Assembly: GCA_025454775.1 (NCBI GenBank)
Contig: JALONU010000006.1
Span: 1 to 37,757 of the forward strand
Direction of reading: 5' to 3'
Source of the DNA: Bacteroidales bacterium
GTDB lineage: Bacteria; Bacteroidota; Bacteroidia; Bacteroidales; VadinHA17
DNA: 37,757 nucleotides
Shown: piece by piece, positions 5,179 to 27,411 of the stretch
Layout of the letters: each line of letters begins with the position of its first letter
Position numbering within the stretch: position 1 is the first letter of the stretch
Translations under genes and position numbers: made by a program
The notes under the pieces: generated by a model
What the model saw: only the letters and a program-made list of their open reading frames with translations
Told to the model about the DNA's origin: nothing
Databases searched by the model: none

Positions 5179-5222
5179 CAGACCTTTTTTTAAGTGATTT
5201 TTAATACTAAACAATAGCAAAT

Positions 5223-5597
5223 ATGCCGACAATTCAGCAGTTAGTAAGAAAAGGCAGGAAGAAACTGGTTGACAAAAGCAAAGCTCCCGCCCTCGATTCA
5301 TGTCCTCAGAGAAGGGGTGTCTGTGTCAGGGTTTACACGACAACACCCAAAAAGCCAAACTCGGCAATGAGGAAGGTTGCCAGGGTAAGGCTTACAAACC
5401 AGAAGGAAGTGAACGCATACATCCCGGGCGAAGGCCATAACCTCCAGGAACACTCCATAGTTCTCATCAGGGGCGGCAGGGTAAAAGACCTCCCTGGAGT
5501 CCGCTATCACCTCGTCCGTGGTGCTCTTGATACCTCCGGCGTTGACGGCCGGACACAGAGAAGGTCAAAGTACGGCGCAAAAAGGCCGAAAAAGTAA
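5223..5597 (+). CDS. rpsL: 30S ribosomal protein S12
   Basis: [33 protein letters not shown]. Confidence 0.99.
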
Positions 5598-23117: not shown

Positions 23118-24401
<1,284 letters not shown>

Positions 24402-24504: not shown

Positions 24505-24627
24505 TACCTCTCCCCAACCTCCCGTTGAGGCGGGACAAGCTCTCCCCCAGGAGGGAGGGGCTAAGAACTTATTCGAAATTTAAAGTCCCCCTCTCTCTTG
24601 GGAGAGGGGGATTTAGGGGGAGAGGTA
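24505..24627. repeat. Composite REP/MITE-like element
   Basis: 11-bp terminal inverted repeat TACCTCTCCCC/GGGGAGAGGTA enclosing three hairpins (24520-24535, 24539-24561, 24584-24613). Confidence 0.75.
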
Positions 24628-24774
24628 AGACAACCAGGAGATAAAGATTCCTCCCGGCAAGTTATTCCTGATGAATTGTAGCCCGGATTCAGTGCAAGGG
24701 TCGATAGCTCTCAAATGGACAAGGTTTTAGCATATCCTGATAAAGCATAGAATCATATATCCAAACATTCCGAC

Positions 24775-24796
24775 GTTATCAACAATTGTTGATAAC
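24775..24796. promoter_or_regulatory. Perfect 22-bp palindrome, candidate protein-binding site
   Basis: GTTATCAACAATTGTTGATAAC. Each half contains TTATCAACA, one mismatch from the DnaA box TTATCCACA. Confidence 0.55.
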
Positions 24797-24835
24797 TCCT
24801 GTTCATATCGGGTTTACAACAAGGAACACCTTAAA

Positions 24836-24866
24836 TTGCTTTTTAAGGATTCCTGGATTATATTTG
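24836..24866 (+). promoter_or_regulatory. Bacteroidota primary-sigma promoter of the structured RNA
   Basis: TTG (24836-24838), 20-nt spacer, TATATTTG (24859-24866). Predicted start around 24871-24875. Confidence 0.75.
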
Positions 24867-24871
24867 ACTTA

Positions 24872-25380
24872 TCGGGTGAGCGATAAAGGGCTGCTCGAAC
24901 GATGTGGAACCGGAAAAGATTACTTAACTGAAATACGATCCGGTTCATTCAGACCTTCGGGTCTGCGCATCAAGAGAGCCGAAGCCTGGACAAAAGGAAC
25001 CTGGTCCCCGACCAGCCCCGGATGTTCAGCAGGTCGCAGAAAACCGGAAACGTTCTTTCAGCGACTGGGTCACAGGGCCTCAGGGAAACAAAGGGCTTCG
25101 GCCCTGAGTGAACTGAAACTGGTGCCGGATCCTCCGGGAAACGGCCACCGGAGCCTGAAGGACACTTCGTCCCGGAAAGTCCCGCCGAAAGACGGGAACA
25201 AAAGGACAGCCGGAAAGACCTGCCATAAAAAGCAGGACTGGAACGCCAGGGGTTGCAAAACCAGATCGTAAGACCTGTAATGCAACCGGCCGGAATAACA
25301 GTAACCCGACGCCGTTAACGGCTTCGGCCGGAAACGGTGAATGGGAACTACTCCTCGCGAATAGTTCCCATTATTGTTTT
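24872..25380 (+). ncRNA. Large (~510 nt) highly structured non-coding RNA candidate, family not recognised
   Basis: Own promoter and terminator. C(UUCG)G hairpins at 24950-24965, 25092-25105 and 25319-25330. GNRA loops at 25047, 25187 and 25268. Nested long-range helices; 5'/3' closing helix TCGGGT/ACCCGA. Confidence 0.8.
25340..25380 (+). terminator. Intrinsic terminator ending the structured RNA
   Basis: 11-bp stem AATGGGAACTA (25340-25350) / TAGTTCCCATT (25362-25372), followed by ATTGTTTT. Confidence 0.75.
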
Positions 25381-25415
25381 ATACCCCCCACAGGTAAGAA
25401 CTTAATATTTAAACC

Positions 25416-25481
25416 GTCATTGCGAGTCCCGCCACCACCTTCGCTAAAGCTACGGTGGTCAATGGCGGGACGAAGCAATCT
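25416..25481. repeat. Nested REP-like element
   Basis: GTCATTGCGAG...CGAAGCAATCT shell enclosing GTCCCGCCA/TGGCGGGAC, which encloses ACCACC-TTCGCTAAAGCTAC-GGTGGT. Confidence 0.75.
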
Positions 25482-25506
25482 GTCTCTTCATTACCTTATC
25501 TTTCTT

Positions 25507-25590
25507 TCTTGAATCTTTTATCTCTTATCTTTGGTCCTGAGTCCTGGGTGCTGGGTCCTGGGTCTTTTATCTTTTATCTTTTGTCTTTTT
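25507..25590. repeat. Degenerate period-7 tandem tract (12 units)
   Basis: TCTTGAA TCTTTTA TCTCTTA TCTTTGG TCCTGAG TCCTGGG TGCTGGG TCCTGGG TCTTTTA TCTTTTA TCTTTTG TCTTTTT, abutting the ATG at 25591. Confidence 0.8.
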
Positions 25591-27411
25591 ATGTCTTATT
25601 CAGGTTTAAACAGTTTTATCGCAGCCCTCGAAAGGCAGAATGAACTACTCAGGATAAGGTCTTTTGTTGATCCTGTACTGGAAATAACAGAAGTCACCGA
25701 CCGTATTTCAAAATCAGGAGGTAAAGCACTCCTCTTCGAAAATACGGGTACTTCATTCCCTGTCCTTATCAATGCCTTCGGCTCCGAAAAAAGGATGGCA
25801 GCTGCAACAGGCAGGAAAGACCTGGACGATGCAGCCCGTGAGGTCACAGAAACATTCTCACTGATCAGCGGTCCTGCGAAAGGGCTACGGGGAAAAATAT
25901 CCTCGATACCTTCACTATTGAGGATCAGGCACCTCCTTCCGTCGCGGAGAAGGGGACGGGGAAGGTGCCAGCAAATCATTCACAACGATCCCGACCTGTC
26001 TTTACTACCTGTGTTAAAATGCTGGCCCTTTGATGGCGGACGTTTCATTACTCTTCCTTTGGTCCATACAGTGCACCCTGTAACTGGAAGGACAAATGTC
26101 GGAATGTACAGGATGCAGATCCTGGACAGCCGGACAACAGCCATGCACTGGCAGCGTCATAAAACAGGTGCAGCCCATTTTGCAGAATGGAAAAAGACAG
26201 GGATGAAGATGCCAGTCACCGTTACACTGGGGGGAGACCCGGTTTATACCTACGCAGCTACGGCTCCCTTGCCAGAGAATATCGACGAATATATACTTGC
26301 GGGATTTCTGAGAAAGAGAAAGGTTAAACTGGTAAAATGCCTTACGAACGACCTTTATGTTCCTGCCGACGCCGACATAGTTATTGAAGGATATGTCGAT
26401 CCGGCAGAGGATCCGGTAACCGAAGGACCCTTTGGCGACCATACAGGCTACTACTCCCTTGAGGATCTCTACCCAGGATTCCATGTTACCTGTTTAACAC
26501 ATTCGGAGGAAGCCGTCTACCCTGCTACAATCGTCGGTATTCCTCCCATGGAGGATAAATGGCTTGCACTTGCAACGGAAAAGATGTTTCTCTCTCCTCT
26601 CAGGCTGGTGATAGTGCCGGAAGTGCTGGATTTCCATATGCCGGCCGCAGGCGTTGCCCACAACCTGCTCATAGTTAAAATCACGAAAACCTGGCCTGGA
26701 CAGGGAAAGAAAGTGATAAGCTCTCTTTTCGGGGCAGGCCAGATGATGTTCACCAAATACCTTGTGGTTGTAAGCGGCGATGTGGATATCAGGAATTACA
26801 GGCAGGTGCTGGAACATGTTCTGGGAAACACCTCTTTCACCAGGGATCTGATATCAATTACGGGGCCGCTTGATGATCTCGATCATGCTACCGCAATCCC
26901 CGCCCTGGGGGGCAAGCTCGGCATAGATGCCACTGAGAAGATTGAAGGTGAATTGTCACCGGGTGAAAAAGTCGTCAGCAGTACAGGTTCAGGGATTGAA
27001 ATAATGACAGCTGATCTGGCAGAAGGTCCGGAGGGTGTTGAAAAAGCAGTAAAGGAAGCTGAGGCTCGCTATGGAGGAGAAGGAAGGAAAATCGTTGTGC
27101 TTGTCGACAAGGCTGTGGATGCCGGCAATATGAACCAGGTTGCCTGGCAGGTGCTGGGGAACTCTGACCCCCGGAGGGATGCATTTGTCCTTTCAACCGG
27201 CCTGCTTTTCATCGACGGCACCCCGAAGGTATTTCGTTCACCTGGCTACCCGTGCAGATGGCCGAATGTTGTTGTTTCTGCTCCGGAAACGATCGCCGCG
27301 GTCGATACAATGTGGGAATCACTCGGCGCCGGTCCTTTCATTAAGTCACCCTCGGTATCTAATTCAGCCCTTCTGCTTTCCGGCGATGCGAAGGTCAATA
27401 TGAATTTCTGA
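25591..27411 (+). CDS. UbiD-family prFMN decarboxylase, probably the menaquinone (futalosine pathway) MqnL type
   Basis: NVGMYRMQ, MHWQRHK, EGPFGDHTGYY, PATIVGIPPMED, GAGQMMFTK, LDH...GGKLGIDAT. ATG at 25591 preferred over the TTG at 25531, which lies inside the repeat. Confidence 0.88.
   Translation: MSYSGLNSFIAALERQNELLRIRSFVDPVLEITEVTDRISKSGGKALLFENTGTSFPVLINAFGSEKRMAAATGRKDLDDAAREVTETFSLISGPAKGLRGKISSIPSLLRIRHLLPSRRRGRGRCQQIIHNDPDLSLLPVLKCWPFDGGRFITLPLVHTVHPVTGRTNVGMYRMQILDSRTTAMHWQRHKTGAAHFAEWKKTGMKMPVTVTLGGDPVYTYAATAPLPENIDEYILAGFLRKRKVKLVKCLTNDLYVPADADIVIEGYVDPAEDPVTEGPFGDHTGYYSLEDLYPGFHVTCLTHSEEAVYPATIVGIPPMEDKWLALATEKMFLSPLRLVIVPEVLDFHMPAAGVAHNLLIVKITKTWPGQGKKVISSLFGAGQMMFTKYLVVVSGDVDIRNYRQVLEHVLGNTSFTRDLISITGPLDDLDHATAIPALGGKLGIDATEKIEGELSPGEKVVSSTGSGIEIMTADLAEGPEGVEKAVKEAEARYGGEGRKIVVLVDKAVDAGNMNQVAWQVLGNSDPRRDAFVLSTGLLFIDGTPKVFRSPGYPCRWPNVVVSAPETIAAVDTMWESLGAGPFIKSPSVSNSALLLSGDAKVNMNF

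Follow-up and report, generated by a model that had tools for sequence, protein, structure and literature searches.

A Large Structured Noncoding RNA Spread Through the Bacteroidales, With a Near-Invariant Terminal Helix and a Variable Body

Few classes of large, complex bacterial noncoding RNAs (ncRNAs) are known, and RNase P, tmRNA, OLE, GOLLD, ROOL and raiA each opened new biology or a new architecture. ROOL and GOLLD are often phage-borne, and to our knowledge the Bacteroidota have so far had no orphan giant ncRNA. Bacteroidales-1 (RF01693) is bounded by a Bacteroidota promoter and a terminator. Its row in the table of Weinberg 2010 carries a Y for RNA, question marks under cis-regulatory and switch, and Bacteroidales as the taxon. 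The locus described here lies in a 37,757-nucleotide (nt) stretch of DNA from a Bacteroidales bacterium of the VadinHA17 lineage (contig JALONU010000006.1 of assembly GCA_025454775.1; the whole stretch is called the window, all positions refer to it, and the parts of the RNA gene given below lie on its + strand). Analysis of this DNA and its relatives showed that positions 24870-25373 are an independent large structured ncRNA gene with its own promoter and its own intrinsic terminator, and that related RNAs, forming one family, occur widely across the order Bacteroidales and share one terminal module. It is a new class of large ncRNA, real and unusually well supported.

A sequence-only reading of this locus had placed a G/A-rich segment with no credible protein gene between a promoter and a terminator, and both of these elements were recovered by comparison. 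The promoter is of the Bacteroidota type (24836-24866), with TTG at 24836-24838, a 20-nt spacer, and the TAnnTTTG box TATATTTG at 24859-24866; the TTG and the box are both retained in 19 aligned homologues, and the box stands directly 5' of the 5' motif described below in distant members too. The intrinsic terminator (25340-25380) consists of a stem, 25340-25349/25363-25372, followed by a T-run, and forms helix 25 of the consensus fold, with 12 pairs; its GGGAA/UUCCC core is conserved and the flanking pairs co-vary between families. Taken together, the positions of promoter and terminator predict a primary transcript of about 504 nt (24870-25373). Homology among relatives starts at the TAnnTTTG box and stops at the T-run, and the stretch is single copy, with one match in its own genome (G000).

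The + strand has a minimum free energy of -207.3 kcal/mol (z = -5.8), and none of 100 shuffled sequences folds as well. Single-sequence folds of short members were uninformative, and the fold used here is the RNAalifold consensus of 19 same-genus homologues, a multi-branched structure of 117 pairs in 25 helices. In this consensus 96.6% of 2218 cells are paired, compared with 25-45% when partners are slid by 1-3 columns, and changes on both sides are found in 45 of the 117 pairs, compared with 7-18 in the slid controls; as the fold comes from this very alignment, it is favoured in the count of paired cells and less so in the double-change counts. On none of five measures did any of 500 shuffles reach the observed value. 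Conserved G-U pairs are frequent (columns 46/479, for example, hold GU in 19 of 19 homologues) and would be A-C on the other strand, which bears out an earlier remark that G-U pairs fit the + strand; the strand was assigned from these pairs together with the promoter and the terminator. Several hundred nucleotides long, multi-branched and supported by covariation, the RNA belongs by this operational criterion to the class of OLE, GOLLD and ROOL.

The helices that had been drawn by hand in the sequence-only reading fared less evenly, with 11 in agreement with the consensus and 6, about a third, wrong. Those recovered are the terminator, the closing stem 24872-77/25304-09, all three helices that make up the three-way junction, and the hairpins GGTCGC/GCGACT, AGGGC/GCCCT, TCCCG/CGGGA, CCTGC/GCAGG, GGTTGCA/TGCAACC and GCCGTT..AACGGT. 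The 5' hairpin GAGCG/TGCTC, the long-range stems GCC/GGC, CCTGG/CCAGG, ACCAG/CTGGT and GTTCA/TGAAC, and the hairpin CTCCGG/CCGGAG were not; their segments either pair elsewhere with compensatory changes (helices 2, 3, 8, 9, 15 and 17) or lie where most homologues have a gap.

The closing stem, P1 (helix 1), joins the two ends of the RNA, its 5' strand at 24872-24877 pairing with its 3' strand at 25304-25309. Adjoining it are two near-invariant strands, xAGVGAUAAARG on the 5' side (here GAGCGAUAAAGG, 24878-24889), in which 9 of 12 positions are invariant, and AAUAACNGUA on the 3' side (25294-25303); in a logo of 109 members both are invariant except for the V of the first and the N of the second. 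V and N partly co-vary (C:A in 82 members, A:U in 8, C:C in 7, G:A in 6, G:C in 2), which sets V across from N within one unbroken irregular helix leading from P1 into P2. The two invariant strands together make up 20 nt and are largely non-Watson-Crick, and the AGUA/GA part of this terminal helix may be sarcin-ricin-like. P1 itself changes while keeping its pairing: among 111 distinct members, 97 have 6 of 6 standard pairs and 12 have 5 of 6, in 39 versions of the helix, and the mean pairing of 5.81 compares with 5.31 for shuffled partners (maximum 5.41 in 1000 shuffles).

Inside the terminal helix lie three domains. The 5' domain (24889-24979, helices 2-7) holds the 5' strand of P2 (24889-24892), P3 (24893-24896/24976-24979) and a three-way junction, in which a conserved CUUAAnUG loop and a C(UUCG)G hairpin were found in an alignment of 51 members (A2) and are part of the covariance model R1 built from it. 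The central variable domain (24981-25168, helices 8-18) is closed by 24981-24984/25165-25168 and shows many double changes; it is missing in one genome (G006) and shortened or replaced in other genera. The 3' domain (25169-25291, helices 19-23 and 2) comprises three hairpins and the 3' strand of P2 (25288-25291), and from this domain through to the terminator the length is 170-187 nt in 79 members. Beyond P1, a 3' hairpin with a C(UNCG)G loop (25310-25339, helix 24) has 11 pairs, 6 of them with double changes, and in distant members carries UUCG or UACG loops. Two natural variants would be useful for defining dispensable parts of the RNA: the G006 copy (L022), from which the whole central domain is gone (query 149-331), and the G016 copy (L018), which has an insertion of about 275 nt between body and terminator.

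Full-length homologues with 68-90% identity were found by BLAST in 22 of 24 same-genus genomes. With the window copy as query none of 16 other families matched, and with a divergent copy 74 of 150 genomes of the family did, only the two ends matching outside the genus; the loci recovered there encode RNAs of 325-602 nt with the same ends. In the sister genus BLAST found 1 of 39, yet the 5' motif is present in 58 of 61 genomes (control matches in 9) with its own version of P1, and 10 of 12 checked loci have the 3' motif as well. R1, which models the 116-nt 5' domain, matches 16 of 151 genomes of the order (roughly one genome per family); at all 18 R1 loci the 5' motif directly follows a TAnnTTTG-like box, and at 16 of the 18 the 3' motif lies 200-540 nt downstream. 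The promoter end together with the 5' motif occurs in 71 of 401 genomes of the order and in 49 of 236 genera (10 genomes with a reversed control), with at most 3 copies per genome. Two genomes have two copies of the 5' motif about 1.5 kb apart on the same strand (G405, C60:5-31 and 1499-1525; G482, C28:14992 and 16508), and G405 and G509 have three copies in all.

The pattern used on genome contigs was too loose: among 80 listed loci 15 looked true, 14 of them with both motifs and a terminator, the fifteenth (L149) ending at a contig edge and holding the 3' part only. Outside the order the phylum scan was near background (12 genomes matched, 5 with control matches), and none of the 12 has the 3' motif at one mismatch or fewer; locus L281, in a family of the same class outside the order, nevertheless belongs here when judged by eye, combining a variant of the 3' motif with a complementary P1 and a terminator. 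In at least 53 of the 80 metagenome loci listed, both motifs accompany a complementary P1; another 8 are truncated where the contig stops. Carriage as phage cargo was considered and rejected, one 18-letter 5' motif finding no match in 2.9 million viral contigs. The close relatives in metagenome-assembled genomes (MAGs) are labelled Bacteroidales, Rikenellaceae and Prolixibacteraceae, and metagenome assemblies from wetland, sludge, sediment and marine sources contain the class, as do environmental RNA libraries. Over 160 distinct members were gathered, with complete genomes among the carriers.

Part of the stretch is present in 20 public runs, of which 7 are RNA libraries, and contigs of four RNA libraries from four studies align to 24881-25309; the other 16 runs count as evidence neither of expression nor of habitat. 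In X3 and X4 several contigs are letter-identical to the window over 24881/2-24988, 24959-25095, 25066/75-25279 and 25250-25301. X10 yielded 2750 contigs at a likeness of 90% or more, which indicates many variants in that library; the summed word depths, which reach 2.2 million in X10, do not measure expression. X3, X4 and X9 have no contig on 24300-24758 or 25320-25800, X9 has a trace at 24759-24860, and X10 has mere traces at 25320-25421; these uncovered parts should not be read as absence, as RNA ends, or as a lack of the terminator.

The contigs also offer a weak hint of processing. One X3 contig has loose letters directly before 24882 and one X4 contig has them directly after 25301, and both look like sequencing adapter. 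Positions 24882 and 25301 face each other in the terminal helix; with ends there, the last pair would be G48:C476, followed by a 2-nt 3' overhang. A double-strand cut that leaves a 2-nt 3' overhang is the pattern of RNase III. One X10 contig joins 25373 back to 24870 (it "goes back 504", at a depth of 25.8 and a likeness threshold of 90), and these are the ends expected for the primary transcript; template switching, ligation, a circular form or a relative's tandem copy might each account for the joint. Together these contigs hint, weakly, at a precursor of about 504 nt that is trimmed to a possible stable form of about 420 nt (24881/2-25301), from which P1, the 3' hairpin and the terminator would have been removed.

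The explanation that we regard as likely is that the members of this order-wide family of large ncRNAs work in trans as stable particles, most probably in the form of a ribonucleoprotein (RNP), with the terminal helix as a recognition site. The 5' and 3' ends pair as P1 and continue into an irregular helix of two near-invariant strands, then into P2 and P3. The RNA would act in trans as a stable folded particle, and the invariant terminal helix may be recognized by a partner protein, by a trimming nuclease, or by both, with the variable body as a structural scaffold. An RNP form is proposed since a helix with 20 invariant, mostly non-Watson-Crick nucleotides is what a protein site typically looks like. 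A fuller claim, which we hold with confidence a little above even, is that this RNA is the first to be recognized of an undescribed order-wide class of large processed Bacteroidales RNAs, in which the two ends make an invariant irregular helix of 20 nt and an ornate body evolves freely, and that the class is a new RNP or ribozyme of the rank of OLE, ROOL, GOLLD and raiA, possibly excised by a double-strand cut.

Several points weigh against this account. Between families only the terminal module and P2/P3 align, so that "one family" means about 60 nt and a shared architecture, and the invariance of the two strands in the logo is partly circular, the search patterns themselves having required much of both motifs. 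The minus strand is nearly as unusual in folding energy (z = -5.5), so energy alone gives no strand, and a simple terminator scan did not list the + strand terminator. Assembled contigs show neither strand, ends nor level, and the trimming model is built from two single contigs with loose ends and one joint at a likeness of 90. The strong covariation of P1 would be odd if the mature form were without it, unless P1 serves processing. No partner protein emerged from the surroundings, no neighbouring protein cluster recurring in more than 5 of 48 loci. That Rfam and the literature were found to lack the RNA does not prove it unpublished.

It seems unlikely, on balance, that the RNA is a machine without protein, either a ribozyme, which might excise itself at the invariant helix, or an ornate self-assembling particle of the ROOL, GOLLD and OLE kind. 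Its make-up would suit such a role: the RNA is multi-branched with A-rich linkers, and 112 non-redundant bodies contain 209 UNCG hairpins (23 expected) and 284 GNRA hairpins (103 expected). Such a make-up is usual for RNAs that fold by tertiary contacts. The 20 invariant nucleotides lie where the contigs end, the lack of a linked protein gene at the 48 loci fits an RNA that works alone, and homo-oligomers of GOLLD, ROOL and OLE are reported by Kretsch et al. (2025; PMC12286853). Against this, the Rfam ribozyme families give no match, and one would look for a catalytic core in the body, which is unconserved between families.

The variability of the body also raises the idea of a protein sponge, in which repeated short sites of the body, such as CCGGAA or the tetraloop hairpins, would titrate a global RNA-binding protein in the manner of CsrB/RsmZ and CsrA. 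The distance between the 5' and 3' motifs ranges from 189 to 527 nt (median 398), the bodies are rich in G and A, and CCGGAA occurs 172 times in the 112 bodies against 18 expected. A sponge is nonetheless improbable: the long-range helices with compensatory changes indicate one defined fold, and the CCGGAA copies of the window stand in differing settings (a helix end, a GAAA loop, an internal loop) and form no single repeated module. A sponge for CsrA in particular was rejected, PF02599 having been found in none of 5 carriers.

Very improbable is a cis-acting leader or attenuator, akin to a riboswitch, of the gene downstream. The RNA gene occupies a 1.1-kb gap between enolase (eno, 23124-24401, +) and a UbiD-family gene (25531-27411, +), with ribosomal protein L17 upstream of the gap and a SpoIIE-type phosphatase downstream, and it precedes ubiD by 150 nt, has the same orientation and ends in a terminator. 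Part of the family retains the order rplQ-eno-RNA-ubiD-spoIIE, and eno-RNA-ubiD was seen at 43 of 46 complete same-genus loci and at 18 of 20 loci first examined from other genera of the family. A same-genus genome (L042) has the RNA with no ubiD after it, however, and the neighbours (among them biotin carboxylase, ArgRS, LpxA, ClpS and a transposase) are unrelated at L076 in another genus of the family, in the sister genus, where the RNA adjoins neither eno nor ubiD, and in other families. The downstream gene is often convergent, as at L110 (ArgRS), L163 (LpxA) and L148 (transposase). Because neighbours differ between families and are often convergent, we conclude that the RNA is not a leader and acts in trans. 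It is also far larger than known aptamers, and the terminator showed no alternative pairing. The sequence-only reading had linked the RNA to the ribosomal cluster and eno, an arrangement that is local to part of one family and no property of the RNA.

Relatives do not conserve the 430-nt spacer that separates eno from the RNA promoter. This spacer contains a perfect G/C-rich palindrome (24586-24611) in a G/C- and purine-rich stretch, which a scan flagged as terminator-like on the minus strand and which may end eno transcription.

Equally improbable is a housekeeping RNA in disguise, that is, a very divergent 6S, RNase P, tmRNA or signal recognition particle (SRP) RNA. A search of the whole window with the 4227 models of Rfam 15 (cmscan) gave no hit at the gathering score; at E<=10 positions 24600-25600 gave only 3 chance matches (the best 19.9 bits where 62 are needed, and 16.1 where 59 are), and at E<=0.1 nothing fell on the RNA in the loci of 18 distant members. 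The RNA does appear stable and expressed, but the usual candidates lie elsewhere. RNase P RNA (RF00010) is at G000:C196:5195-5581 with 239.8 bits, SRP RNA (RF00169) is separate at G000:C26:18695-18794, and tmRNA (RF00023), of which ARAGORN found none in the window, is elsewhere in three complete carriers (G156, G163 and G094). G000 itself has no tmRNA above the Rfam cut-off and only tRNA-like partial matches; with an assembly that is 94.8% complete in 288 contigs, the gene is probably unassembled.

For 6S RNA the comparison runs through Bacteroidales-1. Its 179-position model has no match in G000, its matches in G246 and G275, which carry both RNAs, are at other loci, its example L224 is without both motifs, and R1 found nothing above chance in 20 Bacteroidales-1 loci. 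Strong Bacteroidales-1 matches and this RNA hardly co-occur among 151 genomes of the order, which counts in favour of a disguised housekeeping RNA. Weak Bacteroidales-1 and weak 6S-Flavo matches overlap at G275:C1:2132999-2133191, and for this reason Bacteroidales-1 is probably the 6S-type RNA of this order; weak matches to one or the other at other loci in G094, G156 and G275 suggest that carriers have a 6S-like RNA of their own. The models RF00013 and RF01685 do not match the RNA described here. RF00013 finds nothing in 4 carriers, which might be taken as a missing 6S RNA, but it also misses the Bacteroides thetaiotaomicron control, so that its silence means little. 6S RNA is a rod with a central bubble, and the branched fold here is not. 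Replacement of 6S RNA is unlikely.

That the segment holds no RNA gene, and is a dispersed repeat (a miniature inverted-repeat transposable element, MITE, or a repetitive extragenic palindrome, REP) or a small protein gene, is scarcely credible even with an overlapping 161-amino-acid open reading frame (ORF) and a true REP-like repeat 40 nt downstream, since it is single copy and syntenic in the family, the ORF has no Pfam match, insertions and deletions among homologues ignore the reading frame, and the longest open frame shifts strand, frame and place among 79 homologues. The downstream repeat is a palindromic element of about 70 nt (25412-25482), about 40 nt 3' of the RNA terminator, and has 6 near-full copies (84-100% identity) in its own genome; one copy (G000:C196:5035-5105) precedes the gene for RNase P RNA (5195-5581) by about 90 nt.

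The broader claim of the sequence-only reading, a large stand-alone trans-acting ncRNA outside the catalogues, has therefore stood, each of the named tests that was run having come out in its favour: Rfam 15 is without a match, compensatory changes are present among homologues, the RNA is single copy in its own genome, the 161-amino-acid frame is unconserved, RNA-library contigs cover 24881-25309, and the candidates it had named, RNase P, tmRNA and Bacteroidales-1, lie elsewhere or differ. No description was found in the literature; passages of PMC2864571, PMC7366714, PMC13750123 and the preprint 10.64898/2026.10.21.760802 do not describe the RNA, and a term search of the main texts PMC11109978, PMC8632094 and PMC5737381 found Bacteroidales-related names absent. 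Among the discovery papers of the Breaker laboratory and of Weinberg, the main texts searched name no comparable Bacteroidales RNA. A relative could be listed in the supplements of Weinberg 2010 and 2017 or in those of Fremin and Bhatt 2021 (PMC8040213). With strong covariation, natural deletion and insertion variants and carriers with complete genomes, the class is well placed for study. Work on its structure, partners and genetics might bring to light a new RNP or ribozyme from a phylum without Hfq- and CsrA-type regulators, and a covariance model would annotate a recurrent unexplained transcript of environmental RNA libraries.

Set beside known systems, the RNA most resembles OLE, GOLLD, ROOL and the raiA motif RNA, which likewise are several hundred nucleotides long with a multi-branched, covarying fold, have their own transcription unit, are non-coding with orphan function, and are seen in RNA libraries. 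It differs from them in having no match to them in Rfam 15, in its phylum, Bacteroidota, and in an invariance limited to the terminal module, with a body that varies almost threefold in length; its 5' motif, in one 18-letter form, was found in none of the 2.9 million viral contigs. With Bacteroidales-1 it shares its occurrence in Bacteroidales and its stand-alone form, and it differs in size (179 positions there, about 500 here) and in locus. The pairing of its ends, and the possible removal of a terminator-bearing 3' trailer, recall trimmed stable RNAs such as RNase P RNA, 6S RNA and the processing stems of rRNA, with which it has no homology and which are encoded elsewhere in this genome or its relatives; a possible cut on both strands of the helix with a 2-nt 3' overhang, the ends being weak hints here, would be like that of RNase III-processed stems. 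A possible resemblance of design is to Y RNA and other RNP scaffolds, in which a conserved stem formed by the ends and an invariant irregular segment accompany a variable body; unlike Y RNA, this RNA has no adjacent Ro gene (rsr) or recurrent protein gene and no Rfam Y RNA match, and it is much larger.

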